Below, one piece after another: positions 2,555-32,083 of a DNA stretch of 64,000 nucleotides; positions within the stretch are counted from its first letter, which is position 1; each line of letters begins with the position of its first letter. The stretch spans positions 32,001-96,000 of the IMG/VR virus record IMGVR_UViG_2030936005_000025; one strand, written 5' to 3'. The notes below the pieces were generated by a model. That model did not search any database. It was not told the origin of the DNA and was given only the letters and a program-made list of their open reading frames with translations. Made by a program: the position numbers and the translations under genes. Source of the DNA: a virus (Duplodnaviria > Caudoviricetes).

Positions 2555-5500
2555 ATGGCAGAGTTGATTAAAGTTAATAAGAAAGTTATTAACGATCCAC
2601 TCTTCACGCCAGTCATTGCTTTCTTGAAAGAGCGTATTGCGAATCTTGAAATCAATGGACCGGAAGATGAGTTAGCATTATCCAAGCAGCGTTATGACGG
2701 CTTGGTGGCTGGCGATCTCGTTATTGAGAGTGCTGTCCGTTTTCCTGATAATGTCGTTCGTGTTTGTATCATTTCTCGTAAGACGGGCTTTGCTCGTGTA
2801 GACCTTGATATCAAGTACGCTAAGATGAAAGACATCTTAGAAGACTTTACTGTTCCTCTGGTAGAGATTGAAGATGTCGACCATCTGAAAACTTATGTCA
2901 AAGCGAACAGTGACATCGAACCGACTTTGCTATACCTGAAGTATAAAGACACTTACGGTGTTCTGATCACTCAGGATCAAGCGAAGACCCACGAAGGTCC
3001 GATGACTGCTTTCGGTAACTTGTTCTTCGAGAACTATACCACAACTCGTGAGAGCTTGAACTCGATCGATTGGGAAAGTCTTGAGTGCGGTACCGTTACC
3101 ATTACTGACCCGTCATTTGGTCAGGGTGTTTATCCGCTGTTCATTTATGAACTGGTTTTAGCTGAAGCCCAGCTTCCTGAAATCACCTCAAACCTGCCGA
3201 CTTCTATTACCAGTCGTCGTGGTGAAACCTTTGATATCCCGAACACTTACTGGTTCGCGGGCACTCAGGACATTACCACTACCGCCACGGTTGAACTCAG
3301 TACCAAGTTAGGTTACGCCAACCTTGAGCGTTCTTCTGACTTACTGCAGATCGACGGTGAAACCATCTATGGTTCTGCTGATCAAGAAATCACAGACACC
3401 ATCGTTGTGCGTGTGTCGTATGACTGGAACGGTAAGTTAGTTCGTAAGAACTTCTATATCGAACTGAAGATCGAGAAAGATTTACCCAGTGAATTGGTGA
3501 TCACTTCTGTTCCAACGGAAGTTAAAGCAACCAGCGGTGATATCGTTGAGCTGACCCTGACAGCTAAGCTGCGCGGTGACAAGGTTGAGATTCTCATCCC
3601 ACCAACTATGCTGCGTTCTCAGAAAGGTTTCGGTAACCTGGCTTATGTTAAAACTAACAAAGACCTGACCATGGTGTATCGTGGCAAGGTTAATGTGAGT
3701 TGGCCAAGGGATGTGGAACAAGTTGCTGATCTTTGGTATGCAGAGTTTAGTTATAACGATGCTGGTACCATTATCAAGAACACGGCCTACATCAACTCGA
3801 TTCTGGTTAAGCCTGAAACACTACCTGCCTTTACTGTGACTGGCGTTCCAACTCTGTTACAGGGTTACAAGAACCAGACCGGTAAATACAAACCTACTGT
3901 CATGTACGGTGAGCAAGAGATCGCTCTGACCCAAGTACAAATTGACACCGGGGTGCAGGGTAGTAAACAACTGGTTGATATTACCGAAGTCACTGATGCG
4001 GGTGTGAGTTGGAAACTGATTGATGATTCTCAGACTCCAGGAACAGCAATCCGTGATAGTTTCACTCAGACTTATGAGTGGCTGGATCCTCGCGGTGTAC
4101 TGCAAACCAAAAGCTTTGTTATCCAAGTAAACGTTTTACTGGATTCCATCGTTGAACTGGTTCCGGTTCCCCCACAACCTCGTAATGTGGTTCGTTATCA
4201 GACCGGTGGTCCAACCTTTACTTTCATGGTAAACGGTACCCCACGTTCTGGTTTGATTCGCACTATACGGGTTGATCCAATTGCGGATCCAAAGAAACAG
4301 TACATCGTTAACAACCCGAAAGCAAACAACCAATGGATGGTTGCGCTGGCAGATGAAACAGGTCCTGTGGATTACACAGCGAACTTCACAATCACTGCTC
4401 TGGTTGATGGTGTTATCAAGACGTACAAGTTCCCGCAAGAGTTTATCATTGCTAAATATGTGCCGGGTACTAACGACACGGGTAGCAATACTGGTCCTGG
4501 CGGGAATACCGGTCCTACAGATCCAACCAGTCCTGGCGGTGAGGGTAACCCAAATAGCCCAGGTAGTGGGGATGGTCCTTACAACACCAATATCAAAGCT
4601 GAACCTCTGTCGTACAGCATCGGTGATAAAGGTGAGAAGTCTGCTAAGTTAACCTTTAAGGTTCTTGAAGGTACGACTGATATTACCGCAGATTGCCATC
4701 TGTTAACCGAGTCGACAGTCACTCCATCTAACGTTTCGTTTGATAACCTCACGTATGACGCTGACAACAACGTCTTTGTGGTGGACTATACCAAACTGGG
4801 TAAAGGTCAGAGTGAAGGTGCGGTATTTGCTTGTAAGAAAGCAGATGCTAATCCAGCTAAGGTTGATATCGCTCGTATTTGGATTAACACCAAAATTGGT
4901 ATAGGTGATGGCCCCCCAGTTGACGACAGCGATCCAGACAACCCTGGTGGTGGTCCTGCTCCTGGTGAAACTGGCACAGGTCCTGGTGGTAGCACTGGCC
5001 CAACCGATCCAACTGAACCGGGTGGCGATCAGAACCCTGATAGTCCTGGTGAAGGCGACGGTCCGTATAACGCCGATATCACTGCGGTTCCAACTTCGTT
5101 CACTATTGGTGGTGAATCGGATAAGAACTATAAGATGTCCTTCAAGATCTTCCAAGGTACGGAAGACGTTACTGCTAAATCTGAGATCATGTCAGATTAC
5201 ACAGTACTCCCTGAATTCGTCACATTGAACCCTATCACTTACGATGCGACCAACAATGTGTTCGTGATGACCTACACCAAAGATAAAGGTGGTGAGTCTC
5301 AGGGTGCGATCTTTGCTAAGCTGAAAGCGACGCAGAATCCGACCAAGAAAGAGATTGCACGTGTTTGGCTGAACGTCAACATTACGCAAACTAAAATCTT
5401 GAAAGTCATCAACCCACCAAAATCCATTAACTTGGATGTGGGCGTTGGAAATGATTTCCCGCTGACAGTGGAGTTCTCTGGTAAAGAGATCAATCTGTTA

Positions 5501-8500
5501 GAACCTGGTCTTACCATCGAGAAGACACCGGTCACCGACACCCGTATTGAGGTCATTGATCTTAACGCGATTCTGTTGATGAACGATACCTGGTCTTACG
5601 TTGGTACGACAAATAAAGAAGTGTCTGGCTTCAAGTTAACTTATGTTGACCCAGAAGACAAAAAGGAATACACCACCAGTTTCCCATTTGACATCTATGT
5701 GACTTATCCTGCACTGGAATTAAAGTACACTGGACCTCAAGAGATCAATGCAAAGATCTGGGATACCGGAACGTTCCCGATTCAGTTGATCGCGGGAACC
5801 AAGGATTTCACTTCTTCTATTGTTGCGACCAGTGTAGTAACGGGTAAGAAATATGTTTCTGTCAACAAACTCGATTGGGATGTGATTCTTGCTGAATCTA
5901 CAGCAACCTCTCAGATTGTTGGTTTGAACATTGGCTGGCGTGTTGGTAAATCTAGCGGTAACTTCCCTGCTGACTTCAAGTTTAACTTGGCGGCTTGGGA
6001 TGGTATTACTTTCGCAGAAACCGCTCACAGCCCGGAAAAGATCGAAGGTGCTTCTGGCGACAAAGGCGAATTCACTGCCTCCTTTATCTATAAAGGTAAA
6101 GATGCCACAGCCACCACAAAGTTTGACAAAGCAAGTTCCACTATCCCTGATACGGTGATTCTGGGTACTCCAGCTTACGACGCAGATAAAGGTCTGGTGA
6201 TTCCTTACGAGTTGACGCTCGGCGGTGACTTCCCAATGACACTTGTTTTTGTTTCACCTTCTGACCCTGACATGACTGTCTCTATTAATGTTGACACGTC
6301 CGTGGCATGGCCTGACGATATTAACATCGTTAATAAAGGTGATAACGTTCGTGGGTATTGGAATGACTCGGTTACCTATCCACTGGTAATCAACGTTGCA
6401 GGTACGCCGGTTAATTTAACCGATGCTAACCTCAGCTTGAATTTCAGTTCAGGTGATGATAATCCGATTGAGCTGACGGAAGCCAAAGAAACAAGTCTGA
6501 TCTTGTTACTGGCCAAAGGTGGTGATCTGGGTACGTCCTACGATTACACCATCACGATTGACTTGGAATATACCAATCAGGCAACTGGTAAAGTGTACAA
6601 CAAGCAGATCGAAGTTCCTGCTACCATTCGTGTTCCTGATGTGAAGGCGACGAATAACCCGACCATCAATGCCAATGTGTTCGACATCGGTAAGATTCCA
6701 GTTACGCTGGTTGATGAGCGCGGTAAAACGATTGAAATCACCAAGTGGGGATTATCGGGCGCAGGTACTAACGTCATTCTCATGGATCCTAGCAACTGGT
6801 ACATCACTAACGGTTCAACCATTGGTTCTGTTCCAGGTGAGCTTCCACTTCGTCTGGGTTACACCATGGGCGGTGTTGAGCGCACTATTGATGTGCTCGA
6901 GAAGTTTACCATTGCTAAGTGGGATGGAGTTTACTTCAAAGCTACTACCAAAGTTGTCAAGATTGAAGGCAACGGTGGTGACACTGGCGAGATTCCTTTT
7001 GAGTTTACTTATCAGGGTCTACCGAGTGTAGGTGTTACGCTTGATCGTAGTCGTTCAGATATTCCAGACAACATTGCCATTGGCGAGTTGGATGATGAGA
7101 ACAATCTGACCTACACCCTGTCTGGACAAGATGAGGGAGATCTCAAACTGTGCTTCGTTCGTCCTGATGCTATTGAACCAATGCAGGAAGGTCGTGACTA
7201 TGCACTGGTCTCGTTCTCTGTTAAGACGACGTCTACCAACTTACCGTTCACGCTGGAAAGCAGCGATAACAAAGTTGATGTGGATTGGGGTAAAACGGCA
7301 ACGGTGAAGTTCGTTGTTAAATACGGCGACAAAGTTGTTCCTAATGACACTCCAGGTCTGAAGATCACGCTGGCTGATGCTGCAGTGCATGGTATCAGTA
7401 TTCAGAAAGTGACCAAAGACGGCATTGAGATCAAAGGGATTCGCTCTGATGTAGCAGGTTCGACTAAGTCGTACGCTGAGACATTCAATGTGAGCTATGA
7501 AGTGGGTGCACCAGAACCTAAGCAGGTGTCTTTCGATACCACTGCTAATGTGAGTATGGGTGCTGCGACCATCTTCAACAACAACGATGTCAAAGTTAAG
7601 ATTTGGGACACGGGTTCATTCGCACAGGTCGTGCAGTTCAATGGTATCACGTTGAACACCATCGATCACTTCGAAATTCAGAACAGTGCCGATAATAAAT
7701 ATATCGAAGTCACCCCTCCTCGCGGTTATGAAGTTATTGGTGCTGAGATTGCTACTGGATCTCAGGAAATCCCAATGACGGTTTACTACCGTGTTGATGG
7801 AACCACTGAGTTGCAGAAGTTAGACTTTAAAGCCACCTTCACCATTACTGGCTCAACGTCTGTACGATTCAAGGTCACACCAAGCCCAACCAAAGTTGAG
7901 GGTTCTCTCAACAATGAATCTGTGGTGCGTTGCACACCTATCTATAAAGACAAACCAGTTGGCGGACGTGCTACCTTCAAACCTGCACTTTCTACCATTC
8001 CTCCTCAGTTAACACTGAAAGATTTTAAAGTGGTCAACAATGACTACGTTATTACTTTCGTGGGTGCTAAAGGCGGTCTGGCAACAATGGACTTGGTCTT
8101 CTGGGCTCCAGATGTCACTGATCCACCGAAAGCACGTGATGTTGCTACTGCAACGTTTGATGTTAAAGTCATGGGTGAATTGGGACTTGAGATCGGTACA
8201 CGTGACAACCTGCTTACAGGTAAGAACGCAGACACCGGTACTTATCGTCTCCAGATCTTGTTTGGTGGTATTCCGATCGATGCTGCAGCAGATATTGCTT
8301 CAGGTAATCTGACTGCCACAAGGGAAGCAGGTGTTCCTTCGTCGATGAACGCTAACGTGATCACGATTGATAAATGGAACGCAGAGTCCTACGACTACAC
8401 CTTGGCTGGTTGTGTACAACCTAACGCAACAGTGAACGTATCCGATTTCATCAACTTGACTTATAAGTACGGTGGAACGAACTATACACGTCGCGTTGAG

Positions 8501-11500
8501 ATTCCTCTGAAGTATACCAGTAGCACGCCTGATTTCACCGGCTGGCCAACTGCGTACCTCAAGGTCTTCTCTAAAGGGACATTGTCACCAACCGTGAAAT
8601 GTGATGGGGTAACTATTAACGGTATCAACTCTATTGCCAACTATGGCGATACGGATGACGCTTATGTGACCCTGGGTGGAACAACTAAGCAATATGAGAT
8701 CTTTAACGGCGACACCGTCGATATTACTCATTTGGTTCATGCTCGTGTTATCGGTCTTTACCGTAACTGGACCTGGACTGCTGAAATTGACATTCCATTC
8801 AACATCCTGGCTTGGAACCAAAGAACCTGGGATCCGACATTATCGGGTGCTCCTTGGTCAGTGTATATGGACCTCACCGGTACAGCGACTCGTCAGGTTA
8901 ACTTGACGGCGTATTACCGCAATGGGCTTTACTCTGGGTTCTCAAGTAAAACAGGTGATTTGATTTACCGAGATAAGACTGATCTTCTTGGTTTAGTTGG
9001 TCTGGATTATTCAGCGTATGCATCCGCAACCACCCAGTTCTACCGGATGACTGCGAAGAAACCTGGAAAGGGAACATTAAAACTCTCCTTCCGCAATCCT
9101 GAAAGCACAACTGTTCCAGGTAAAGAAGGTGTGGATTACACCAACGTTGATTATGACGTTGAGGTAAAAGAAAACACACTGATTGGATCCACATCGGGCA
9201 CACCTACCGGTGGTAATGGCGATACTGCTACTATTACCTTGGTTGTTCGTCAGGAATCCAACAACAGTCAAATCCAAAACACTAACCAGTATTTGGAAAT
9301 TGCAACGGTTAATGAAGATGTGTTTAAAATCACATCGAAAGCTGCAAGTACGATTACTGTTCTGGTAACGGCACCGCTCTCTGTTCCTGATGGCGTTGTG
9401 AATGTTCCGATGACCTTTAAGTACACCGACCCTAACACTGGGTTTGTGACCAAAGGTACGTTTGACTATCCGTTTATCATTAAGCGTCCTTCTGATTATC
9501 CAACTGTGCGTCAGACTAACACAGTGCAGACTTACCGTCTGTTCGACTATGGACCTAACCCGTTCACAGTAACTTCAGAAGGCCAGAACGTTAGTGCTAA
9601 AGTTATCCCGATCTCCTGTAATGATACCATTAGCGCTGGAGTCGGAACAGGCAACCAACCTCCTTATATGGAGATGTCTTACAACGATCCGGTTGATGGT
9701 AACTGGTTCTGGATTACTAAGGTGTTCAATGTTAGTCAATCCCAGGGTCGTGTAAGTGAGTGGGTCATTCGTGTCCCTTATCGTGGCTCAACGGTTGATA
9801 TTACCGCACGGTTCAGTTATAACCTGTATGGCGGAACCAACATTACTGAGTTCTACGTTGCTGCTAACCAAAGCAAGTTCTTGACAATGAAGGTAGGTGA
9901 CCAAGTCACTCTTCCATTCACCATCAAGTATCGTAACCTTGCCTACGGTAAAGCGGTATTCAAGCCTGATGCAGTCGCCACAGAACAGGGTTATCCTACT
10001 CCGTTCAGTGAAAACTATAAGTTCATCAAGCAAGAATATGATCCTTCAACTCAATTGACGAACATTACCTTTGAGGTTGTGAAGTTAAATCTCAATGCAA
10101 CAGTACCGTTTATCTTTGACTTGAAAGCTGATCAAACTAACCCAGTGATGAACAGTAACCGCGGACTTGGTTTTTCCGTTGCTTATGGTTTAACGATTAC
10201 CCCATCGACAGATAACATCTGGAACATGTGGCAAACTCGTTTCCTGAGCGGCATGGTTTCTATCAAGGATGGTAGCACCGAACTGGTTTCAAGCTGTACA
10301 GTTCTGTCAGTAAGCAGCCCACTGTTCGTACAACAAAGTACCGGGGTCAACCCACGCTTTGCATTGCAGAGTGATGTGGCAATACCTGCTCAGAAACTTG
10401 ATGTTGTTTATGAGATTCAGCTGCCTGCAGCTTATTTCAATACGGTTATCAAAGTAACGATTCCAGCAAACATCAATGAGTATGACGGTGTTGAGTTCTA
10501 TATCGAACGTAATGGTAGTGGTCCAAGCTGGCCAGTTGCGGCGATCGGTAGCACTAAAGTTGCGGTTGACTATCTGTGGTGTTATTACCGTGGTTCTCGT
10601 ATGACTGCTAGTTTAATCCCTAGTCAGGTGACGAGTACAACGGCTGCATTAAGAGAAAAGAACAAGGATGTGGATGGCGGTTCTGGATTAATTTGGAATG
10701 GGATGTCGTACAATACCAGCTCCAACCTTCAGTTCCTGAGTTTCTCATCTGGCAGACAGATTAACGGTAAAGATGTTGTCTTCCCGATCGACTATAAAGG
10801 TCCGGGATATGATAATTACCCAGTAGGAACTAAAGGCAAGAACTACTTTGAGTATACGGTACCTGCTGCTAAGTTCTACGAGAATGCACTTTATCCTTAT
10901 CCATCGGACAAAGTGATTGATCAAGTACAAGGGTCTAAAGGGGATCGTGTTAACGTTCCAATTACCTTTACTGTGGGTAAAGACTTCACCGACAACCCAA
11001 TACTTCCAGGAAACCTGACAAGTTGGGTAATCATCAATGCCAGCGATTTAGCCGGTGTGGTGAGCAAGCCATCGAGTAACCCGAACACAGCAACGGGAAT
11101 TGTTCTTCAGGTTAACTTGGATAACCGTGGTGACGATGTTCTTGTAAATGTACCTATCCGCTTTACCTATAACACCACATATCGTGGGACTTCTATTAAC
11201 AGCTCTGTCGACATGACTGTTCCGCTGTTAATTAAAGGTACAGGGACAGGCGATCAGGTTGTTGTAACACCAGGCACTTTTACAAACTCTCGTGTGTGGG
11301 ATGTCAGTGGGCCAGCGTTGGCAATCACCGTTAACGGCGTGGCAATCACTTACAATCAGATTACCGATATTCAGATTGCTCCTAATCCGTATATCCGTCG
11401 GCCTGAGGTCAACCCTAATACGACAAGTCGTTGGTTTGAGATCTACAATGGTAAAACAGATGGACCGACGCAAACGACCGCAACGTTCACTGTGACGTTT

Positions 11501-14500
11501 AATGATGGTGCTCGTACTCGCACTATTACTCAAGACGTTCCAATTACCATTCAGAAGTACAGTGGTAGTCCTTGGGCAATCACGGTAATGGTTCCGAATA
11601 ACCCGAATAACACGACGTACAACATCGGTTTAAGTGGTTATCTTAATAGTTACCAAAACCTGAGCTTGATGGTTTACTACAAAAATGCTGCCTTGACTGA
11701 AGCATTTGCAAGCACCATTGGGATGGATGTAACTGCGGGGAGTTTCGACACTCCTGGATTCAGTAACCCAACGACACAACAGTACTACTATGTCACGGCT
11801 GGTAACACTAATCCTGGTCCTTGCTTCCAGATTCTGTTCCGGGCGGGTGCAGTTGATACTTTAGAGAAGAAAGCCGGTAAGATCAAGTTTGGTTTCCTTA
11901 ACAAACTGACTGACCCTAATTCTGTCGAAGGTCAAGACTGGGTGTATGTGGATGTATCTTGCTTAACTTATGTTTCTGGCAAGACCTACATTTACGAACA
12001 AGGTGTAACGGAATTCACCAGTAAATACACTAACCCAATTACCAAGGTCAAGTTGCCGTTCAAAATCCGTCGTGATAACCAAATGGTAGGATTGAACGTT
12101 ACTTCGTATAACCCTGCGCTTTCTAATCAGGGTAACTTGGCACTGGTGTTCAACGAGAGTGATGTGGCTACCAATATCACAGTAGGTTTCAATGCTGAAC
12201 TTGTTTCTCAGAAACAGCAGACGTTGGACACTATTGTCTGGATTGGTAACGGACAGAATAACACACTGTCTGCTCAGGGTGTGGTGAGAGCGACCCAAAT
12301 CTCCAACTACGACTTCCCAACTGTCGGAACGGTGAATTCTGTTAATGCTCAGTTGAACCAACGTGGTGGATTACCATTCACCTTGAAGGATGATTCTGGC
12401 AACGACATTACTTCTACTGCAACGATTACAGCGATCTCGACTAACGATTACGTTAAGTTAGATTCAGGTCAATGGCTCTGCTACAGTGTACGTTCTGCGG
12501 ATACTCAAATCCAAGTTACGTTCACGTATCAGCTCACTTACAAAGGCAACTTGCTCACCATGAAGCAAGATGTTCCGTTTGTGATTAAGCCGTTCACTGG
12601 TCAACCTACCGTTAGTGATGTTCAGGTTGTTAATGGGAAAGTATGGGATATCGGAAGTAAGATTCCGTTCACCATCAATATCAATGGCAATCCAGTACCG
12701 AGCACTTGGATCACAGCACTGACAGGAACCTCTGCCAATAACCGTGTTCAAGTTACCAGTCTGGCAGAACCTTGGTATATCGTAGCGGGTAGTAAGGATG
12801 CTGCTGTTTCTGATACCGTGAGCTACGTAGCAACAGTCACCGATGGAACCAATACCTGGACAGTTAAACAGGATGTGGTCTTCAACATCGCGAAATACGA
12901 TGGAGTGGAACTCTCAGCCCGTATTCTGACGTCAGGTGGTGGTAACGCTGAATTGCAAACGGTGTTCTATCCGTACAACGCAACCAGCATTGTGGGGATT
13001 ATCTTCAATCTCTACTCTAAAGGTAGGTTGGTCGCTAATACGGGGATTGCGAGTCTCAATGTAGGTAAAGGGCTCGTTGCTTCAGGAACAAGTGCATCTG
13101 GAGCCAATGCAACATGCAACATCAAAGGTAATAACACTGTTAGTGGAAATACTGAAACGTCCATGACAGTTCAGTTGACCATTCGTGGATCCGCTGCAAC
13201 AACAGAGGGTATCGACATTCTGACAGTGACCATTCCGGTGTTTATGGTTCAGGGTACGGGTCAGTTGTTGGTTCACCCAAGAACAACGAAAGCCATGACA
13301 GGCAAATACGGCACGCCGGTTTCTCTTGACGCTTATCTCATTAAGTATGTCAGTGAAGCAGGAAGTCGATTCGTTGATCTAACAACCGGTAACACTACTA
13401 TTACGTTTGCCCCATCAGACGTTATTACCTTGGTCCCTGGTTCTATTACAGCTCAAGGCTATAAGGTCAACTTCGCATCTCGTCTGTACGCGGACACGGT
13501 GAAGGATGTCGTGGTAACGGTAACCAATGGCGGTGTTTCGAAAACTTACACCTTGAACACAACGCAGTTGGCTTCTCCTGCTGATCAACCGGATGTGAAG
13601 GATAATAACGGTCAAACAGCAAGTGTCAACCAGTCTGGTGCAATGCCATTCAAGTTAGTTGATCCTGATACTCAGGAAGACGTAACCTCAAAAGCGACTA
13701 TCTCTTCTATTGCTAGCAACGATTACATCGAGCTGGTTAACGGTAAGTGGTACGCTAAGAAGGACGTGGCAACTGACACCCACACCAACGTGACCTTTAC
13801 CTTAACTTTGAATTATCGCGACAAAGATATCGGTATGGACGTTGTGGTTGATTTCTTGATCAAACCGTTTGATGGGAAGTTTACTGTCACGGACAAGAAA
13901 GATATCACCGCTAAGGTGTGGGATAGAGGAACAGTTCCTCCATTTGGTCTCAGTGTAAACGGCAACCCAGTTCCAACTTCTTGGATTACAAGCTGGGAAA
14001 CCTCGCCTACTGACACCTACGTAGCAGTTGCTGCAAATGGTTCATGGCAGGTTATTGCAGGCGATCAAACCAAAGGCGTCACTGTTACTGTTGGATATGC
14101 TGCGAACATTACTGTTCCGGGTGGGAATACCACTAAGAACGTAACGCAGGTTACTTTCAACATTAGTCAGTATGACGGTATTGAGTTCAAACTCAACCTG
14201 GCTAACCTTCAGGCAGGTAATAAAGAACTGCAAGCTATCTTCCTCACCTATAATGCCAGCAGTACCAATGGCATTTATTTCGAAGGTCGATACCGCGGAG
14301 ATCTTGTACCGAGTCCTATTGGTGTGTCGTTGAGTGGGGGTTATCTGAGAATCGGTAACGGACCTATTAATGGTGCGTCTTCCGTTGCTTGGGCAGTTCA
14401 ACCTTCCGGTGCTCCGGCTAGAGGCACAGCTGCCTGGACGGCGAGAATTAAGCGTGCAAGTAGTGCTGGTAACATTGAGAACTCAGATGTTGCTTCATTA

Positions 14501-16549
14501 CCGATCCCAGCTTATTTCGTAGTAGGTGCTGGCGATATGTTCGTTCACACTGGTACAACAAAAACAGCTTCGGGCAAGAAAGGTGATCAACTTGATCTTG
14601 TACTGAATATGTTCCGTTATTCCGGTACGCCGACGACCACAACCCTGACAGATTTGACCGCTGGCAGTACAACAGTTGAGTTCTCCCCTGCAAATGTGAT
14701 TGAACTGGTTCCTGGTTCTATTACAGCGCATGGGTATAAGGTGCGTTTCATCAACACCCTGTATCAAGACACAAATACCCAAGTTACCGCTACTGTGAAA
14801 ACAGCATCAGGTAATGTAAGTTATGTGATTGATGTGACTCAGTTGGCTTCTCCTGCTGCACAGCCTGATGTGGTTGGTAATAACACACAGACTGCTGGCA
14901 TCAACCAGACTGGCACCATGCCGTTTAAACTGGTAGATCCAGACACCCAAGAAGACGTCACTTCTGCCGCCACCGTTACTTCTGTCGACAGTAATCCTTA
15001 TGTCGAGTGGGTTGACGGTAAATGGCGAGTGAAATCAGATGTTTCAGCGGATACCCATTCCGATGTAACATTTAATCTGACGATCACTTACCGCGGCATC
15101 ACCAGTGACATGCATGTTACCACGGACTTCCTGATTAAACCATTCGACGGTGTATTCACGTTTGGTAATGTCGAGCCGATCTCTGGTAACGTGTGGGATC
15201 GTGGTACTGCTATTGACATGGGTATTAAAGTCAACGGCAACGCGATCCCGGTAGATTGGATCACAGGTTATCTGGCGACTCCAGAAAGCAACTACGTTAC
15301 TGTTGGAGCTAACGGTGTATGGCAGATTGTTGCGGGCAGTAAAGACGAAGCAATCACCGAAACTGTAGGTTACACAGCGACTGTTGCTGTTCCAGGAACC
15401 ACCTCTTATCCAGCCACTGTTCAAGTGACATACAACATCGGTAAGTACGATGGGGTTGAATTCAAACTTCGACTCACTAATCTGAACGCGGATGATGTGT
15501 TGTTTGGTCAGGCAGGATTGGCGGCTCGTGGTTATCTGGAAGGCAGGTATCGTAATGATCTGATTGGTGGAACTTCAGGATATGGATGGACAGTAATCAC
15601 TCGCGTGAACTTACATCCGACGACGCCGATTTCAGGTGTTAACCTCAGTGGGTCTTCTAAGATCTATGACTTTAATACTGTTGACGCGCCGGCTGCTCGG
15701 GCACAGAACGTGGTTCGTTTCGTTCGCCCTGGTGGTAAAGATCCTAAGACTGATAACACTGCTGTTAAAGATGTTGACTACGTTGATATGGTTATTCCGA
15801 TCACCACCTGGAAATCCGACACACTCGTAGCTGGTCAGACCCCAGATAAGTTTGAAGGTAAACTGGGTGATGTACTGGATGTGAGAGCCAACGCTTACTA
15901 CAGTAGCACCAGACTCAGTCTTGACTCCAGTGTACTTCAAATCACGCCTGACGCCTCCCTGGGTATTGAGATCGTTCCTGACTCTATCACCGCGGATGGT
16001 TTCAAAGTGAGATTCGTTGCTGACGTAACAGAACAGACAACTGTCGCATCTGTTATCACGTACAAGTACACGAATGGATCTACTACTGGAACGGCTACCC
16101 CAGCGTTTACAGTGGTTCAGAATCCAGGAGATGTCAGTCCTGATGTTAACGCCACCGGCACCATGGCACCTATGAAATACGGCGAGACTGGTAACATCGT
16201 CTTGACGGGCACTGTAGGTTCTGATGCACTGGCTGGTAAAGTCACCTTCGTTCCTGAAAGCAGTGACAATAAGGGACTGGTCACGTTCGGTGATCCTGTT
16301 AACAATGAAGACGGTACAGTTTCTATTCCTGTTACCGCTGACAAAGTTGGTAAAGATAACCTGACTATCCATATTACGGTAAATGGTGCAACCGGAAATG
16401 TCTCTGGCAAGGATTATTTGGATGTCATCGTCGCAGCTGAAGTTACCTATGGTGATCTCGGTGAAGGTGATGGCTTTGAAACCAATGCCACAGGCACGAG
16501 CGGTGAACCTGTAACTGTTATTCAATGGACGTACATGCCAGAAGAGTAA
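2555..16549 (+). CDS. Giant 4664-aa tandem Ig-like-repeat protein, probable fibre/adhesin with a distinct N-terminal anchor domain
   Basis: Uninterrupted 14-kb ORF with SD aggag; about 40 ~100-aa beta modules with a recurring K(I/V)WDxG motif; Gly/Pro linkers; internal duplications. Confidence 0.8.
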   Translation: MAELIKVNKKVINDPLFTPVIAFLKERIANLEINGPEDELALSKQRYDGLVAGDLVIESAVRFPDNVVRVCIISRKTGFARVDLDIKYAKMKDILEDFTVPLVEIEDVDHLKTYVKANSDIEPTLLYLKYKDTYGVLITQDQAKTHEGPMTAFGNLFFENYTTTRESLNSIDWESLECGTVTITDPSFGQGVYPLFIYELVLAEAQLPEITSNLPTSITSRRGETFDIPNTYWFAGTQDITTTATVELSTKLGYANLERSSDLLQIDGETIYGSADQEITDTIVVRVSYDWNGKLVRKNFYIELKIEKDLPSELVITSVPTEVKATSGDIVELTLTAKLRGDKVEILIPPTMLRSQKGFGNLAYVKTNKDLTMVYRGKVNVSWPRDVEQVADLWYAEFSYNDAGTIIKNTAYINSILVKPETLPAFTVTGVPTLLQGYKNQTGKYKPTVMYGEQEIALTQVQIDTGVQGSKQLVDITEVTDAGVSWKLIDDSQTPGTAIRDSFTQTYEWLDPRGVLQTKSFVIQVNVLLDSIVELVPVPPQPRNVVRYQTGGPTFTFMVNGTPRSGLIRTIRVDPIADPKKQYIVNNPKANNQWMVALADETGPVDYTANFTITALVDGVIKTYKFPQEFIIAKYVPGTNDTGSNTGPGGNTGPTDPTSPGGEGNPNSPGSGDGPYNTNIKAEPLSYSIGDKGEKSAKLTFKVLEGTTDITADCHLLTESTVTPSNVSFDNLTYDADNNVFVVDYTKLGKGQSEGAVFACKKADANPAKVDIARIWINTKIGIGDGPPVDDSDPDNPGGGPAPGETGTGPGGSTGPTDPTEPGGDQNPDSPGEGDGPYNADITAVPTSFTIGGESDKNYKMSFKIFQGTEDVTAKSEIMSDYTVLPEFVTLNPITYDATNNVFVMTYTKDKGGESQGAIFAKLKATQNPTKKEIARVWLNVNITQTKILKVINPPKSINLDVGVGNDFPLTVEFSGKEINLLEPGLTIEKTPVTDTRIEVIDLNAILLMNDTWSYVGTTNKEVSGFKLTYVDPEDKKEYTTSFPFDIYVTYPALELKYTGPQEINAKIWDTGTFPIQLIAGTKDFTSSIVATSVVTGKKYVSVNKLDWDVILAESTATSQIVGLNIGWRVGKSSGNFPADFKFNLAAWDGITFAETAHSPEKIEGASGDKGEFTASFIYKGKDATATTKFDKASSTIPDTVILGTPAYDADKGLVIPYELTLGGDFPMTLVFVSPSDPDMTVSINVDTSVAWPDDINIVNKGDNVRGYWNDSVTYPLVINVAGTPVNLTDANLSLNFSSGDDNPIELTEAKETSLILLLAKGGDLGTSYDYTITIDLEYTNQATGKVYNKQIEVPATIRVPDVKATNNPTINANVFDIGKIPVTLVDERGKTIEITKWGLSGAGTNVILMDPSNWYITNGSTIGSVPGELPLRLGYTMGGVERTIDVLEKFTIAKWDGVYFKATTKVVKIEGNGGDTGEIPFEFTYQGLPSVGVTLDRSRSDIPDNIAIGELDDENNLTYTLSGQDEGDLKLCFVRPDAIEPMQEGRDYALVSFSVKTTSTNLPFTLESSDNKVDVDWGKTATVKFVVKYGDKVVPNDTPGLKITLADAAVHGISIQKVTKDGIEIKGIRSDVAGSTKSYAETFNVSYEVGAPEPKQVSFDTTANVSMGAATIFNNNDVKVKIWDTGSFAQVVQFNGITLNTIDHFEIQNSADNKYIEVTPPRGYEVIGAEIATGSQEIPMTVYYRVDGTTELQKLDFKATFTITGSTSVRFKVTPSPTKVEGSLNNESVVRCTPIYKDKPVGGRATFKPALSTIPPQLTLKDFKVVNNDYVITFVGAKGGLATMDLVFWAPDVTDPPKARDVATATFDVKVMGELGLEIGTRDNLLTGKNADTGTYRLQILFGGIPIDAAADIASGNLTATREAGVPSSMNANVITIDKWNAESYDYTLAGCVQPNATVNVSDFINLTYKYGGTNYTRRVEIPLKYTSSTPDFTGWPTAYLKVFSKGTLSPTVKCDGVTINGINSIANYGDTDDAYVTLGGTTKQYEIFNGDTVDITHLVHARVIGLYRNWTWTAEIDIPFNILAWNQRTWDPTLSGAPWSVYMDLTGTATRQVNLTAYYRNGLYSGFSSKTGDLIYRDKTDLLGLVGLDYSAYASATTQFYRMTAKKPGKGTLKLSFRNPESTTVPGKEGVDYTNVDYDVEVKENTLIGSTSGTPTGGNGDTATITLVVRQESNNSQIQNTNQYLEIATVNEDVFKITSKAASTITVLVTAPLSVPDGVVNVPMTFKYTDPNTGFVTKGTFDYPFIIKRPSDYPTVRQTNTVQTYRLFDYGPNPFTVTSEGQNVSAKVIPISCNDTISAGVGTGNQPPYMEMSYNDPVDGNWFWITKVFNVSQSQGRVSEWVIRVPYRGSTVDITARFSYNLYGGTNITEFYVAANQSKFLTMKVGDQVTLPFTIKYRNLAYGKAVFKPDAVATEQGYPTPFSENYKFIKQEYDPSTQLTNITFEVVKLNLNATVPFIFDLKADQTNPVMNSNRGLGFSVAYGLTITPSTDNIWNMWQTRFLSGMVSIKDGSTELVSSCTVLSVSSPLFVQQSTGVNPRFALQSDVAIPAQKLDVVYEIQLPAAYFNTVIKVTIPANINEYDGVEFYIERNGSGPSWPVAAIGSTKVAVDYLWCYYRGSRMTASLIPSQVTSTTAALREKNKDVDGGSGLIWNGMSYNTSSNLQFLSFSSGRQINGKDVVFPIDYKGPGYDNYPVGTKGKNYFEYTVPAAKFYENALYPYPSDKVIDQVQGSKGDRVNVPITFTVGKDFTDNPILPGNLTSWVIINASDLAGVVSKPSSNPNTATGIVLQVNLDNRGDDVLVNVPIRFTYNTTYRGTSINSSVDMTVPLLIKGTGTGDQVVVTPGTFTNSRVWDVSGPALAITVNGVAITYNQITDIQIAPNPYIRRPEVNPNTTSRWFEIYNGKTDGPTQTTATFTVTFNDGARTRTITQDVPITIQKYSGSPWAITVMVPNNPNNTTYNIGLSGYLNSYQNLSLMVYYKNAALTEAFASTIGMDVTAGSFDTPGFSNPTTQQYYYVTAGNTNPGPCFQILFRAGAVDTLEKKAGKIKFGFLNKLTDPNSVEGQDWVYVDVSCLTYVSGKTYIYEQGVTEFTSKYTNPITKVKLPFKIRRDNQMVGLNVTSYNPALSNQGNLALVFNESDVATNITVGFNAELVSQKQQTLDTIVWIGNGQNNTLSAQGVVRATQISNYDFPTVGTVNSVNAQLNQRGGLPFTLKDDSGNDITSTATITAISTNDYVKLDSGQWLCYSVRSADTQIQVTFTYQLTYKGNLLTMKQDVPFVIKPFTGQPTVSDVQVVNGKVWDIGSKIPFTININGNPVPSTWITALTGTSANNRVQVTSLAEPWYIVAGSKDAAVSDTVSYVATVTDGTNTWTVKQDVVFNIAKYDGVELSARILTSGGGNAELQTVFYPYNATSIVGIIFNLYSKGRLVANTGIASLNVGKGLVASGTSASGANATCNIKGNNTVSGNTETSMTVQLTIRGSAATTEGIDILTVTIPVFMVQGTGQLLVHPRTTKAMTGKYGTPVSLDAYLIKYVSEAGSRFVDLTTGNTTITFAPSDVITLVPGSITAQGYKVNFASRLYADTVKDVVVTVTNGGVSKTYTLNTTQLASPADQPDVKDNNGQTASVNQSGAMPFKLVDPDTQEDVTSKATISSIASNDYIELVNGKWYAKKDVATDTHTNVTFTLTLNYRDKDIGMDVVVDFLIKPFDGKFTVTDKKDITAKVWDRGTVPPFGLSVNGNPVPTSWITSWETSPTDTYVAVAANGSWQVIAGDQTKGVTVTVGYAANITVPGGNTTKNVTQVTFNISQYDGIEFKLNLANLQAGNKELQAIFLTYNASSTNGIYFEGRYRGDLVPSPIGVSLSGGYLRIGNGPINGASSVAWAVQPSGAPARGTAAWTARIKRASSAGNIENSDVASLPIPAYFVVGAGDMFVHTGTTKTASGKKGDQLDLVLNMFRYSGTPTTTTLTDLTAGSTTVEFSPANVIELVPGSITAHGYKVRFINTLYQDTNTQVTATVKTASGNVSYVIDVTQLASPAAQPDVVGNNTQTAGINQTGTMPFKLVDPDTQEDVTSAATVTSVDSNPYVEWVDGKWRVKSDVSADTHSDVTFNLTITYRGITSDMHVTTDFLIKPFDGVFTFGNVEPISGNVWDRGTAIDMGIKVNGNAIPVDWITGYLATPESNYVTVGANGVWQIVAGSKDEAITETVGYTATVAVPGTTSYPATVQVTYNIGKYDGVEFKLRLTNLNADDVLFGQAGLAARGYLEGRYRNDLIGGTSGYGWTVITRVNLHPTTPISGVNLSGSSKIYDFNTVDAPAARAQNVVRFVRPGGKDPKTDNTAVKDVDYVDMVIPITTWKSDTLVAGQTPDKFEGKLGDVLDVRANAYYSSTRLSLDSSVLQITPDASLGIEIVPDSITADGFKVRFVADVTEQTTVASVITYKYTNGSTTGTATPAFTVVQNPGDVSPDVNATGTMAPMKYGETGNIVLTGTVGSDALAGKVTFVPESSDNKGLVTFGDPVNNEDGTVSIPVTADKVGKDNLTIHITVNGATGNVSGKDYLDVIVAAEVTYGDLGEGDGFETNATGTSGEPVTVIQWTYMPEE
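4490..5400 (+). repeat. Internal duplication of Gly/Pro/Asp linker plus Ig-like module (period 486 nt)
   Basis: TGPGGNTGPTDPTSPGGEGNPNSPGSGDGPYN vs TGPGGSTGPTDPTEPGGDQNPDSPGEGDGPYN; each followed by a similar module (..RIWINTKI / ..RVWLNVNI). Confidence 0.9.
12310..16130 (+). repeat. Three tandem ~425-aa (four-module) units in the giant protein
   Basis: MPFKLVDPDTQEDVTS, (K/N)VWD(I/R)G, NGN(P/A)(V/I)P..WIT, YDG(V/I)E(F/L) recur; cagttggcttctcctgctg at 13565 and 14840 (1275 nt apart). Confidence 0.9.
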
Positions 16550-16581
16550 TAGATCGTATCCCTTAATAAAGGACTTTATGA

Positions 16582-18153
16582 ATGACCACCGCTAACCAAG
16601 TGTTAAGCGTTAACGGTCAGAAGTTAAGTAATAAGGATCCTGATTTGACAATCACTCTGGACGATCATCCGGTCGTCCAGATTTCTTCTATTCAAGAGGA
16701 GTCCATTACGTACTCCTTCTTGACGAATGTCGAAGCAGAAATCTCTTACAACCTTAACCTGACATTTACGTACAAGAACAAATATCGCCTTGTTGTTCCG
16801 ATGACCTTTGTTCACAAAGTGTTCACGGAGAACTTCGTGATTGCACCTGAGTTGTCAGAACTCTCGACAACCACTGATCATGACTTCACCCTTCTGTTTG
16901 ATGCAACGCTAAACGGAACTGGGAATGCTCGTGACATCTCACTGGACACCGCTAACTCGACATTGAGTGCAGGCATCAGTGTGGTTTCTCAAGCAGCACA
17001 GAGTGACACGCAATACCAGGTTGTCCTGAATGCGCAGTCACCGGTTGAAGCCGATAACACCTTCTTGTTCTTAAGAGAAGGGAAAACCGCCGATGGTAAA
17101 GAAGGCAGTGACTTTGCGAAAGCTGTGATTAAACTGGATATCAAGAATGGTATCAACACAGCCACGTGGGATCCTAACTTCAAAGCCGTGGGTGCAGATC
17201 GAAACTACATCCCAATTACCGTTGTTGATAAAGACGGTAATCCGCTGGAAGGTGTCACCATTTCTTCACTGAACATTACTGCTAATCCGCGTAATGGGGT
17301 GTTGAATGGATACAGTAACACGCTCTTAGCAGGGGATGACGGTCAACCGGGTAGTTACAAAATCCGTGTTGATTTGGATCATTTGCCAGGAACAATTACT
17401 GTTAAGTTGGCACTCTCCTTTAACGGGACTACTTTCACTATTCCTGATGAAGTCTTTACGGTCCCAGCCGGTCCTTATACCGTGACCGTGGATCCAGCTT
17501 CTGTTGTTCAAGATCAAACGGTTGATCTGAGTCTGAACATTATTCAAGCACGTTATGGTGACAGTAACCACAAGTTCACTGGTCGCATTACTGCAATTGA
17601 ATCAACTGAAGATTCGATTACTGTTAACACTCCAACGCCTATCACGATTACCGATGGTGTGGCTTCTATTAATGTCACCGGTAAGAATCCTGCTGAAAGT
17701 ACCATTGCGGCCACTGCACAGGAATATGATAGCAATATGGATGTGTGGCGTGAAGCCGGTGAAATTCACATTTATGTGAAGACTATCGCTGCGCCTGATG
17801 TTGAACCAGAAATCCAAGATGGCACCACAGACATGACTCTGAATCTGTGGGATACACAAGCTATCAATTATAAAGTAATGGCAGGTGAAACGGATATCAC
17901 GTCTAGCGTTACGAATGTCACGGATCAAACTGATCCTAACGACGCGATCGAGCTGGTTAAAGTCGACGATACCCACTGGGGCTTCCAAGCCGTTAAAGCA
18001 CGCACTGATGAGGATCTGGTTATCGATGCTATGGTAGATGTTCACGTTATGTATCAAGGTACCGAGCGTGTCATCCCAATGACTATCGATGTGGTAGTGA
18101 AAGCCAATACTACTGGCATTCCTGAAAACCGCTTCAACGTCGAAATGCTTTAA
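16582..18153 (+). CDS. 523-aa Ig-like-repeat fibre protein (putative adaptor) with C-terminal donor-like strand NRFNVEML
   Basis: SD aagga; modules paralogous to the giant protein; begins mid-module; last module paralogous to the last module of the 414-aa ORF. Confidence 0.75.
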   Translation: MTTANQVLSVNGQKLSNKDPDLTITLDDHPVVQISSIQEESITYSFLTNVEAEISYNLNLTFTYKNKYRLVVPMTFVHKVFTENFVIAPELSELSTTTDHDFTLLFDATLNGTGNARDISLDTANSTLSAGISVVSQAAQSDTQYQVVLNAQSPVEADNTFLFLREGKTADGKEGSDFAKAVIKLDIKNGINTATWDPNFKAVGADRNYIPITVVDKDGNPLEGVTISSLNITANPRNGVLNGYSNTLLAGDDGQPGSYKIRVDLDHLPGTITVKLALSFNGTTFTIPDEVFTVPAGPYTVTVDPASVVQDQTVDLSLNIIQARYGDSNHKFTGRITAIESTEDSITVNTPTPITITDGVASINVTGKNPAESTIAATAQEYDSNMDVWREAGEIHIYVKTIAAPDVEPEIQDGTTDMTLNLWDTQAINYKVMAGETDITSSVTNVTDQTDPNDAIELVKVDDTHWGFQAVKARTDEDLVIDAMVDVHVMYQGTERVIPMTIDVVVKANTTGIPENRFNVEML

Positions 18154-18162
18154 TTTTAAATA

Positions 18163-18180
18163 GAACCTCTTCGGGGGTTC
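18163..18180 (+). terminator. UUCG-tetraloop hairpin between the 523-aa and 414-aa genes
   Basis: gaacctc-ttcg-ggggttc followed by attctttatt. Confidence 0.65.
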
Positions 18181-18204
18181 ATTCTTTATTACATAGAGGT
18201 AAAA

Positions 18205-19449
18205 ATGGATAAGCAACTTACATTGCTTGAAGGTCAGAGTGGTAGCATCAAAGTCAAACCTACTTTCGAAGGCAAGGCAGCTGCAGATAAGGTTGAACTG
18301 TCGCAGTCACTGAGTAACGCGGATATTCTCCAACTGACCTCGGCACCTGTTGCCAGTGAGAACAACACTGTTGCTACTGTCGCCGTCAAAGTGGGTGCGA
18401 TTGCTGATCTGACCGGTAACCTGGTGTTTAAATACACCGGCAATGAATCTGAAGTCGAAAACATCGGCATCAGTACCAAAGAGATCGGCATTAAAGTTAA
18501 TGCTGCTCAACTGGCGACCCAAGAAGCTCCCTCACCAACCAAGTTCAAGTACACGCCGGGTGCCCAGCTTGTTATCAACGTTCTGTATAAGAATGGCGAT
18601 GAGAATCTGGAAAACACCGATCCACATCTGAATCTGTCTGTGGGTGACTCTGTGTTGGAACTGGTGAGTCGTGATGCGACTGGCGTGACTTTGAAAATCA
18701 AAGACGACGCTGATCCAGCCACTGCTCCAGGTGTTCTGCAACTTCTGGCAACTTACTACTCCGGTAGTTCAAGCACTGACTTGACTCTGGTTGCTAAACC
18801 AAACCTGACTATCGAGACCACTCCACTGAGTCTGACCAATGGTGAAAACCATGCGTTCCCAGTTGTGGTTAAGAAGGGTGATGACGATATTACTTCTTCT
18901 ATCACCAACATTCAGGCCACCGCGGATGAATACTTCACTGTTGATGCCAACGGTAACATCACTGTTATCAAAGCAGATACCGCTGAAGTTCAACGTACCA
19001 TCCACTACACCTTCGACTACACCGAAGATGGTCTGACCTGGACCTACACTGCTGACGTTACTGCGACTATCGCAGCGACCGAAACTCCTGACCAGTTCTC
19101 GCTGACCGATGTGTCAACGCCACTGACGATGGATCTGTGGGCTAAACAGACCCTGAGCTACAAAGTGATGGACGGCGAAACTGATGTTACTTCAAGCGTG
19201 ACCTCTGTGACTGTTAGCAATGCTGACGCGATCAAAGACAAGTTCGAAGTTACTCAGGACGGCGTTACCACGACCTTCCAGTCTGTTAGTTCTAGCAGCA
19301 CTGAGCAGGTTACCGCGACAGCTAACGTTGTTATCGCTGGTACCTACAACGGTCAAGAGTTCAGCCTCCCTGCTGACATCAATCTGGTTACTAACGTTAA
19401 CGACGGTAGCATCCCTACCAACCGTTTCGACGTTCAGATGGATCAGTAA
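18205..19449 (+). CDS. 414-aa acidic four-module Ig-like protein (putative polymerising shaft subunit)
   Basis: SD gaggt; N-terminal module lacks its first strand; C-terminal tail IPTNRFDVQMDQ; codon choice typical of high expression. Confidence 0.75.
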   Translation: MDKQLTLLEGQSGSIKVKPTFEGKAAADKVELSQSLSNADILQLTSAPVASENNTVATVAVKVGAIADLTGNLVFKYTGNESEVENIGISTKEIGIKVNAAQLATQEAPSPTKFKYTPGAQLVINVLYKNGDENLENTDPHLNLSVGDSVLELVSRDATGVTLKIKDDADPATAPGVLQLLATYYSGSSSTDLTLVAKPNLTIETTPLSLTNGENHAFPVVVKKGDDDITSSITNIQATADEYFTVDANGNITVIKADTAEVQRTIHYTFDYTEDGLTWTYTADVTATIAATETPDQFSLTDVSTPLTMDLWAKQTLSYKVMDGETDVTSSVTSVTVSNADAIKDKFEVTQDGVTTTFQSVSSSSTEQVTATANVVIAGTYNGQEFSLPADINLVTNVNDGSIPTNRFDVQMDQ

Positions 19450-19459
19450 TTTAACGAGC

Positions 19460-19485
19460 GAGAGGGTTCCGAAAGGAGCCTTCTC
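19460..19485 (+). terminator. GAAA-tetraloop hairpin between the 414-aa and 296-aa genes
   Basis: gagagggttcc-gaaa-ggagccttctc followed by ctcttt. Confidence 0.7.
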
Positions 19486-19507
19486 CTCTTTAACATAAGG
19501 AGGTAAT

Positions 19508-31790: not shown

Positions 31791-32083
31791 TAACGCACTC
31801 CCTTACGTTTAGCAACAGGATACTGGTTACCTGCTTTACCTGTCACCACTTTCTTGTGACCACGGCCATTGGTAGAAATATCATGACCTAAGTCAGCTGA
31901 CTTAGGATCCTCTTTAGCAGGATTAAGAACTGATTCAACGGCATTGCACAGTAAATGTGTCTGGACATCTTTGAACGCACTCTCAGGAGGGATAGATCCC
32001 TGCTCACCTTTGATCAATTTGTTTCTTTCCAGCTGTTCGGGTAACAGGAGAGAATCTACTAAAGTTTTCTTTTCTTGAGACAT
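31790..32083 (-). CDS. Hypothetical protein with basic C-terminal motif
   Basis: Ends ISTNGRGHKKVVTGKAGNQYPVAKRKGVR*; SD aggag. Confidence 0.7.
   Translation of the reverse strand: MSQEKKTLVDSLLLPEQLERNKLIKGEQGSIPPESAFKDVQTHLLCNAVESVLNPAKEDPKSADLGHDISTNGRGHKKVVTGKAGNQYPVAKRKGVR

Follow-up and report, generated by a model that had tools for sequence, protein, structure and literature searches.

Organization of the locus

The DNA analyzed here, referred to as the window, is a stretch of 64,000 nucleotides (nt) that covers positions 32,001 to 96,000 of the 264-kilobase (kb) virus record IMGVR_UViG_2030936005_000025 (Duplodnaviria; Caudoviricetes). Among its kin is Erwinia phage AH04 (Meadowvirus), and more distant kin are Pseudomonas phage OBP, Edwardsiella phage pEt-SU, Kosakonia phage Kc263, Klebsiella phage N1M2, Pantoea phage Survivor, and jumbo phages of Serratia and Shewanella. 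On the plus strand, the list of open reading frames (ORFs) contains a row of five genes, the products of which are 716, 4,664, 523, 414, and 296 amino acids (aa) long. Here, the junction between the second and third of these genes was analyzed, at which a giant fibre protein ends and a much smaller protein begins. Comparison with relatives makes it probable that the tail of the giant and the N-terminus of the 523-aa protein together constitute one small immunoglobulin (Ig)/cadherin-like domain, through which the two proteins would be linked end to end. This giant-to-523 junction is termed a type-1 joint, and the two junctions that follow, 523-to-414 and 414-to-296, are termed type-2 joints. 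In each case the upstream C-terminus is called the donor and the downstream N-terminus the acceptor. The features around the type-1 joint are as follows.

2555..16549, plus strand: gene of the giant fibre protein (4,664 aa), which is built of Ig-like modules in a chain (ORF list and translation)
16175..16456, plus strand: last complete Ig-like domain of the giant, residues about 4541-4634 (matched by the profile of the type-2 acceptor N-terminus at residues 4541-4616, independent E-value (iE) 4.8e-10)
16457..16546, plus strand: donor tail, giant residues 4635-4664, assigned, within the split cadherin-like module, to strands A*/A and to a copy of the strand that follows them (positions 2-43 of the intact-module profile)
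16508..16546, plus strand: the tail's copy of the duplicated strand, PVTVIQWTYMPEE (gapless joint alignment)
16547..16581, plus strand: tandem stops TAA TAG and 32-nt spacer (sequence)
16582..18153, plus strand: 523-aa adaptor gene, with a conserved acceptor domain, a non-conserved middle, and a conserved C-terminal module with a type-2 donor end
16582..16815, plus strand: acceptor domain, residues 1-78 of the 523-aa protein, assigned to strands B to G of the split module (positions 39-124 of the intact-module profile)
16582..16620, plus strand: the acceptor's copy of the duplicated strand, MTTANQVLSVNGQ (joint alignment)

The giant ends in ...GFETNATGTSGEPVTVIQWTYMPEE, of which the final 13 residues are the strand copy listed above, and the 523-aa protein begins with the second copy in a frame that differs from that of the giant. 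Within the spacer, a Shine-Dalgarno (SD) sequence, AAAGGA, is located at 16569-16574, and a TGA at 16579-16581 shuts the 523-aa frame immediately 5' of its ATG. Five residues of the donor tail form a motif, namely F4641, G4647, P4652, Q4657, and P4662. The two CAA codons that had been proposed in the initial annotation as the point of joining, at 16523 and 16597, are indeed Gln4657 of the giant and Gln6 of the 523-aa protein. Furthermore, the 414-aa and 296-aa proteins have N-terminal domains homologous to the last complete domain of the giant, which directly precedes the tail. The C-terminus of the giant is common to relatives of 3,445-4,121 aa.

Sequence evidence for one divided module

The division of a single module between the giant and 523-aa genes, as first suggested from the window itself, is borne out by relatives in which the module is uncut and by collinear profile matches. 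Residues 1-85 of the 523-aa protein were compared by phmmer with 1.84 billion representative sequences, which returned 50 hits at E <= 1e-3. The acceptor domain starts at residue 1 in 45 of these, within proteins of 84-3,124 aa, and is internal in the other five. In all five, the tail motif stands immediately ahead of the acceptor copy, in the form xFxTxGxG....PxxLxQ, and a sixth such copy was found in locus L004. The search for fused versions in related phages, advised in the initial annotation, thus returned six giant proteins in which the tail motif is continuous with acceptor sequence. An intact-module profile was then built from these six uncut modules alone. Residues 4616-4657 of the giant match positions 2-43 of this profile (E 1e-6 to 2e-5), residues 2-87 of the 523-aa protein match positions 39-124 (iE about 1e-22), and the two matches are collinear.

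The same arrangement was observed at every junction examined. Twenty junctions were available from 14 phage genomes or contigs. Contigs supplied 14 of the junctions, and the other 6 were taken from named phages; Erwinia AH04, Pseudomonas OBP, pEt-SU, Kc263, N1M2, and Survivor are all represented. At 20/20 junctions, the upstream C-terminus stops at profile position 43-47 and the downstream N-terminus begins at 39-42. The tail motif is strongly conserved, with F in 17/18 tails, G in 18/18, Q in 18/18, and the Pro located five residues past the Gln in 16/18. It is retained even where the domain ahead of the tail is unrelated (L003, L004, and L006). On the acceptor side, Gln6 is present in 44/52 sequences and Gly12 in 52/52.

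It should be noted that the cut is accompanied by an overlap. In the joint alignment, a single segment of the uncut module is matched twice and gaplessly, once by about 13 tail residues and once by the first 13 of the acceptor, and both copies are conserved. The duplicated strand noticed in the initial annotation is therefore real, and joining the two proteins at the shared Gln recreates, to within one residue, the uncut module as it occurs in nature. Because both copies are conserved, the overlap does not look like a decaying scar. A further claim, that both halves resemble modules inside the giant, held in part. With BLAST, either half gives only E 0.03-0.3 against the giant, which is not significant alone; the six-module profile recovers one internal uncut paralogue at positions 2-101 of the profile.

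9122..9424, plus strand: uncut paralogue of the split module inside the giant, residues 2190-2290 (six-module profile, iE 4.7e-9)

The acceptor alignment was also scanned against viral and metagenome contig sets, in which no relatives were found. One protein with a normal acceptor N-terminus, P0009 (384 aa, JGI metagenome), carries 60 unrelated C-terminal residues rich in Trp, His, and Lys; it may derive from a chimeric or misassembled contig.

Structural predictions for the split module

The acceptor alone was predicted by AlphaFold2 (AF2) as an eight-strand sandwich, with a predicted local distance difference test (pLDDT) score of 93.9 and a predicted template modelling (pTM) score of 0.80. 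For the uncut module P0054:1640-1770 (alignment A4), AF2 returned the same sandwich together with two short N-terminal strands. These two strands are provided by the segment equivalent to the tail, the pLDDT of which exceeds 90. The models were compared with solved structures by VIA-align. The uncut module can be superimposed on 7a7d_a over chain residues 2698-2800 (Z 8.5, root-mean-square deviation (rmsd) 2.8 over 94 residues), and also on protocadherin, cadherin-23, Sap S-layer, Rib, and intimin domains with Z 7-8. The acceptor alone covers only residues 2720-2802 of 7a7d_a (Z 5.3). On the same chains it begins 16-27 residues further in, with Z about 5.3-5.6, and this shift of the start was repeated on 5co1, 1eut, 6qx4, 6s5w, 6tqd, 8yt8, and 5tfm. 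Since the uncut module covers the whole domain and the acceptor begins late, the acceptor corresponds, at the level of these models, to the fold without its A*/A strands, which is precisely the part to which the tail is homologous. The initial annotation had regarded the N-terminus of the 523-aa protein as an incomplete domain; the acceptor does fold confidently alone in AF2, but the late start of its alignment within solved domains agrees with an incomplete domain.

In a Foldseek comparison with the PDB, the acceptor model gave weak cadherin-like rows only (E about 0.1), and no cadherin family of Pfam matched the module. A cadherin-like/Ig-like fold class for the split module is thus likely rather than proven. 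The conserved residues were also compared with those of covalent tag/catcher-type Ig domains, in which isopeptide or ester cross-links depend on an invariant reactive pair and a catalytic acid (Lys-Asn/Asp-Glu, or Thr-Gln with His/Asp). Among 57 sequences, the invariant residues of the acceptor are N17, Y44, F62, and Y64, and there is no invariant Lys, Glu, or His; the Gln of the tail is invariant.

A hairpin in the mRNA of the acceptor-coding region

A second feature lies inside the acceptor-coding region and concerns the messenger RNA (mRNA) rather than the protein.

16656..16681, plus strand (mRNA sense): hairpin with an 11-base-pair (bp) stem and a 4-nt loop, encoding L-D-D-H-P-V-V-Q (hit of a terminator-like scan)

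The folding free energy (dG) of this hairpin is about -18, a stability equalled by 2 of 848 42-nt windows in the fibre genes, and its motif is unique in the genome. It occurs at the same codons, 75 nt past the ATG, in 17 of 20 type-1 acceptor genes, and is absent from all three uncut modules compared (3/3). In the inner stem, amino acid replacements go together in pairs whose codons stay fully complementary: Asp GAT/GAC with Val GTC, Asn AAC with Val GTT, and Ala GCT with Ser AGC. Further complementary codon pairs are Pro CCT/CCC with Gly GGG and Ser TCC with Gly GGA. In alignment A5, 81.8% of cells are paired, compared with at most 39.7% when the partner strand is slid. Double changes occur at 6 of the 11 stem pairs, and none of 500 shuffles reaches the observed covariation score. 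U-G wobbles fit the mRNA-sense strand only. No Rfam family matched the region around the hairpin. As such, it represents an unusually clear case of RNA structure constraining protein sequence, and it is the reason why DDHPVVQIS is conserved in split forms only. A reading of the DDH motif as a catalytic or cross-linking site was dropped, its conservation being explained by the covariation of the hairpin. The motif is confined to one clade.

Regarding function, the spacers of the 523-to-414 and 414-to-296 junctions carry stable hairpins (18163-18180 and about 19460-19490), and the short type-1 spacer does not. For this reason our preferred guess is that the hairpin is a 3'-end stabiliser or attenuator of the giant's transcript which has been displaced into the next gene. 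A ribosome pause represents an alternative.

The adaptor and the two types of joint

The adaptor carries both types of joint, one at each end. Its type-2 donor end is located in the C-terminal module.

17791..18150, plus strand: C-terminal Ig-like module of the 523-aa protein, ending in ...IPENRFNVEML, the type-2 donor (same module and end in the 414-aa protein and in relatives)
18205..19449, plus strand: 414-aa protein, the N-terminus of which is a type-2 acceptor and the C-terminus a type-2 donor (translation, type-2 acceptor profile)
19508..20398, plus strand: 296-aa protein, with a type-2 acceptor N-terminus and without a donor end (translation, type-2 acceptor alignment)

At a type-2 joint (window 18140-18230 and 19430-19530), the donor ends in ...IPxNRFxVxxx and the acceptor starts with MxxKxLxLxxGQ.G. 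The type-2 acceptor is homologous to residues 4541-4616 of the giant, within its last complete domain. The type-1 and type-2 profiles give no cross-hits, consistent with the proposal in the initial annotation that the giant-to-523 pair is sequence-distinct from the others. When the 523-aa protein is compared with relatives, identity reaches 62-86% across the acceptor and 32-89% across the C-terminal module, against 10-34% for the middle, which is the conservation pattern of a putative connector with a replaceable body. Furthermore, the adaptor of locus L015 (13455-14060) is only 201 aa long and consists of a type-1 acceptor directly joined to the C-terminal module with its type-2 donor end. 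It is a minimal converter between the joint types, and the label "adaptor" of the initial annotation fits it.

Several relatives use the type-1 joint more than once. In L008 (2983-14472), three type-1 joints in series connect proteins of 5,114, 2,823, 837, and 1,559 aa, in this order, and their tails and acceptors are mutually diverged. Serial type-1 joints are also present in OBP, Survivor, and L009. Paralogous type-1 pairs within a locus are about half identical, and on this basis they may be pair-specific. The suggestion that the type of joint sets the order of assembly, so that the giant binds only the adaptor, is thereby restricted. An ordered chain fits the phage of the window; because two or three type-1 joints stand in series in relatives, the type of joint alone cannot set the order there, and a finer specificity between pairs would be needed.

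A second, lineage-specific cut was also found. In L004, P0054, P0064, and N1M2 gp162, the module is kept uncut, and the stop comes about 35 residues further on, within the module that follows (...PFKVIxPR, then stop). The protein that follows begins with a GTG start and repeats the strand (...VPFxV...). P0062 and P0063 are uncut at both places. The sites of the second cut are as follows.

L004:1100-1330
L020:6750-7030
L021:11480-11760
L017:4220-4345

It can be observed that gene fissions here fall inside domains and not between them. In N1M2, a stretch of 624 nt without an annotated gene separates gp162 from gp161 at the alternative cut (L017:4346-4969), where other phages have 18-22 nt; it could be the remnant of an inserted element.

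Proposed assembly of the fibre and alternative explanations

According to the arrangement that we consider probable, the giant would extend past its last complete domain in a 30-residue tail equivalent to the A*/A strands of a cadherin-like beta-sandwich. The 523-aa gene would be translated separately from its own ribosome-binding site, starting after the 32-nt gap. After synthesis, the tail would dock on the acceptor and complete the sandwich by non-covalent strand complementation, with the conserved Phe of the tail becoming buried. The distal chain, formed by the 523-aa protein and then by the 414-aa and 296-aa proteins through type-2 joints, would in this way be held non-covalently at the C-terminus of the giant. 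With a short spacer and neighbouring genes, 1:1 assembly of products from the same mRNA would be favoured. The docking, its strength and specificity, the burial of the Phe, and the 1:1 assembly are all predicted. In favour of this arrangement are the uncut forms, the abutting matches at 20/20 junctions, the fixed position of the cut, the A strands absent from the acceptor, and the conserved motif of the tail. Moreover, the acceptor and C-terminal module of the adaptor are kept while its middle is replaced, and the second cut again lies inside a domain and again duplicates a strand.

Several observations weigh against it. The acceptor folds confidently alone in AF2, and therefore the tail may add to an existing sheet and not be needed to stabilise the fold. 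The strand is present on both chains, so that its canonical position could be filled by either copy. The structural scores are middling, with Z about 8 for the uncut module and about 5.5 for the acceptor, and values of Z <8 are common among beta-sandwiches. Finally, the LDDHPVVQ part of the conservation of the acceptor is explained by the RNA hairpin and not by protein contacts.

The doubled strand may itself be functional, though we regard the following extension of the split-domain joint as doubtful. The N-terminal strand of the acceptor would cap the open domain until the tail's copy zips in alongside or displaces it, a donor-strand exchange that is free of chaperones. The diverged type-1 joints would be orthogonal, and the hairpin, found in split forms only, would tune synthesis of both partners. 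If true, orthogonal type-1 joints would constitute a natural set of programmable protein connectors.

Among the alternatives, it is unlikely that the tail and the N-terminal domain serve only as a DNA linker, at which homologous recombination swaps distal fibre segments, with attachment by other surfaces or with the acceptor bound elsewhere on the virion. Such a role would be in keeping with the wholesale swapping of adaptor middles and with the comparison with AH04: the only nucleotide-level match, at window positions of about 16313-16818 (79% identity), spans exactly the last domain of the giant, the tail, and the acceptor, and the DNA on either side is diverged. However, the protein motif is kept at 35-60% identity where DNA homology is gone, and the structural position of the cut within the fold is invariably the same. 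Recombination and docking are compatible in any case, since a conserved joint is what makes swapping viable.

We regard it as quite improbable that the acceptor is self-sufficient and the tail a flexible C-terminal extension that serves some other purpose, for instance by contacting a chaperone, the tail sheath, or the host, with the adjacency of the two as a relic of an old gene fission. The confident folding of the acceptor alone and its own copy of the strand, retained after the cut, are what this explanation would predict. A relic tail should nevertheless decay, yet each of F, G, Q, and P is retained by 15-18 of the 18 tails, which come from distant phages. In addition, the tail is paired with an acceptor in the next gene at 20/20 junctions, and the acceptor is without the A strands of the fold.

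Finally, that the ORFs are joined in translation into one fibre polypeptide, by frameshift, readthrough, or a gene-60-like Met-to-Met bypass, can hardly be credited: an ATG does lie at 16535 in the window, four codons ahead of the stop and 47 nt before the ATG at 16582, and L002 likewise has a Met near its stop, but the downstream frame is shut by in-frame stops before the ATG in the window, L002, L003, and L004, the stops are in tandem in the window, the spacers range from 14 to 33 nt with a varying frame offset, the last 12 codons are without Met in AH04, L003, L004, and L005, an SD-like site precedes the ATG at every junction, and a Met-to-Met product would hold both copies of the strand, unlike the natural uncut module.

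The split-domain joint could explain how very long fibres are made from separate pieces in AH04, OBP, pEt-SU, Kc263, N1M2, Survivor, and many metagenomic relatives, and how distal pieces would be exchanged with attachment kept. It also provides a natural evolutionary series at one position, in which some modules are uncut, others are divided past the A strands, and others again half a module further on. Within this series, fissions appear to survive only inside domains, where the pieces can re-associate. With a tail of 30 residues and an acceptor of 78, the parts are small and could serve for joining proteins.

Comparison with known systems

Our literature search returned no paper on such a joint in OBP-like jumbo phages; the literature found on strand complementation in phage fibres, and on AH04 or pEt-SU, consists of genome announcements only. 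The general principle is familiar from pili. In chaperone-usher pili (FimA, PapA, and Caf1), an Ig-like subunit is short of one strand, which is supplied by its neighbour, and a non-covalent chain results. There, however, the subunit wants its C-terminal G strand, which an N-terminal extension supplies, whereas here the acceptor is short of the N-terminal A strands and a C-terminal tail would supply them. Chaperone-usher pili also require a periplasmic chaperone and an usher, whereas cytoplasmic assembly is proposed here. No chaperone or usher gene was seen among the ORFs flanking the fibre genes, although no systematic search was made.

In the type V pili of Bacteroidota (FimA/Mfa1), the C-terminal strands of one subunit fill, in the next, the groove of an absent N-terminal strand. 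That groove is opened by proteolysis, which removes the N-terminal strand of a lipoprotein precursor, whereas the acceptor here is translated without A strands and, in a further difference, retains a copy of the strand after the cut. The joint is thus not a member of either pilus system. A likeness to the A*-strand swap of the cadherin EC1 domain can also be recognized, in which an aromatic-anchored N-terminal strand of a cadherin-like sandwich is placed in trans, as is predicted for the tail with its near-invariant Phe. The EC1 swap is reciprocal between complete domains, whereas a one-way donation to a strand-less domain is proposed here.

The closest solved precedent comes from the baseplate tripod of the Lactococcus siphophage Tuc2009, where a 25-residue C-terminal hairpin of BppU completes the sheet of domain 2 of BppA to form a composite titin-like domain (PDB 5E7T; PMC4742702). 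In both cases a short C-terminal extension completes the Ig-like domain of a partner, which is here predicted from sequence. The Tuc2009 joint is single and involves the C-terminal domain of the partner, whereas in the jumbo-phage fibre the N-terminal domain of the next product would be completed. Unlike in Tuc2009, up to three joints stand in series in relatives, natural fused forms exist, and the duplicated strand is conserved. No sequence relation between BppU/BppA and the joint was found.

Neighbouring genes and annotation

In Pfam and PHROGs, no family was found for the C-terminus of the giant, for the 523-aa, 414-aa, 296-aa, and 716-aa proteins, or for the module alignment. The genes of the joint in OBP-like jumbo phages are all annotated "hypothetical". 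The adaptor homologue of Kc263 (L016:9001-12750) bears the annotation "attaching and effacing protein", a label that probably reflects merely its Ig-like (intimin-type) repeats. The first gene of the row lies ahead of the giant.

283-2433, plus strand: gene of the 716-aa protein

At the other end of the row, a strong, bidirectional terminator-like hairpin with a 14-bp stem is located at 20471-20501, 3' of the 296-aa gene, where a block of genes on the opposite strand begins.

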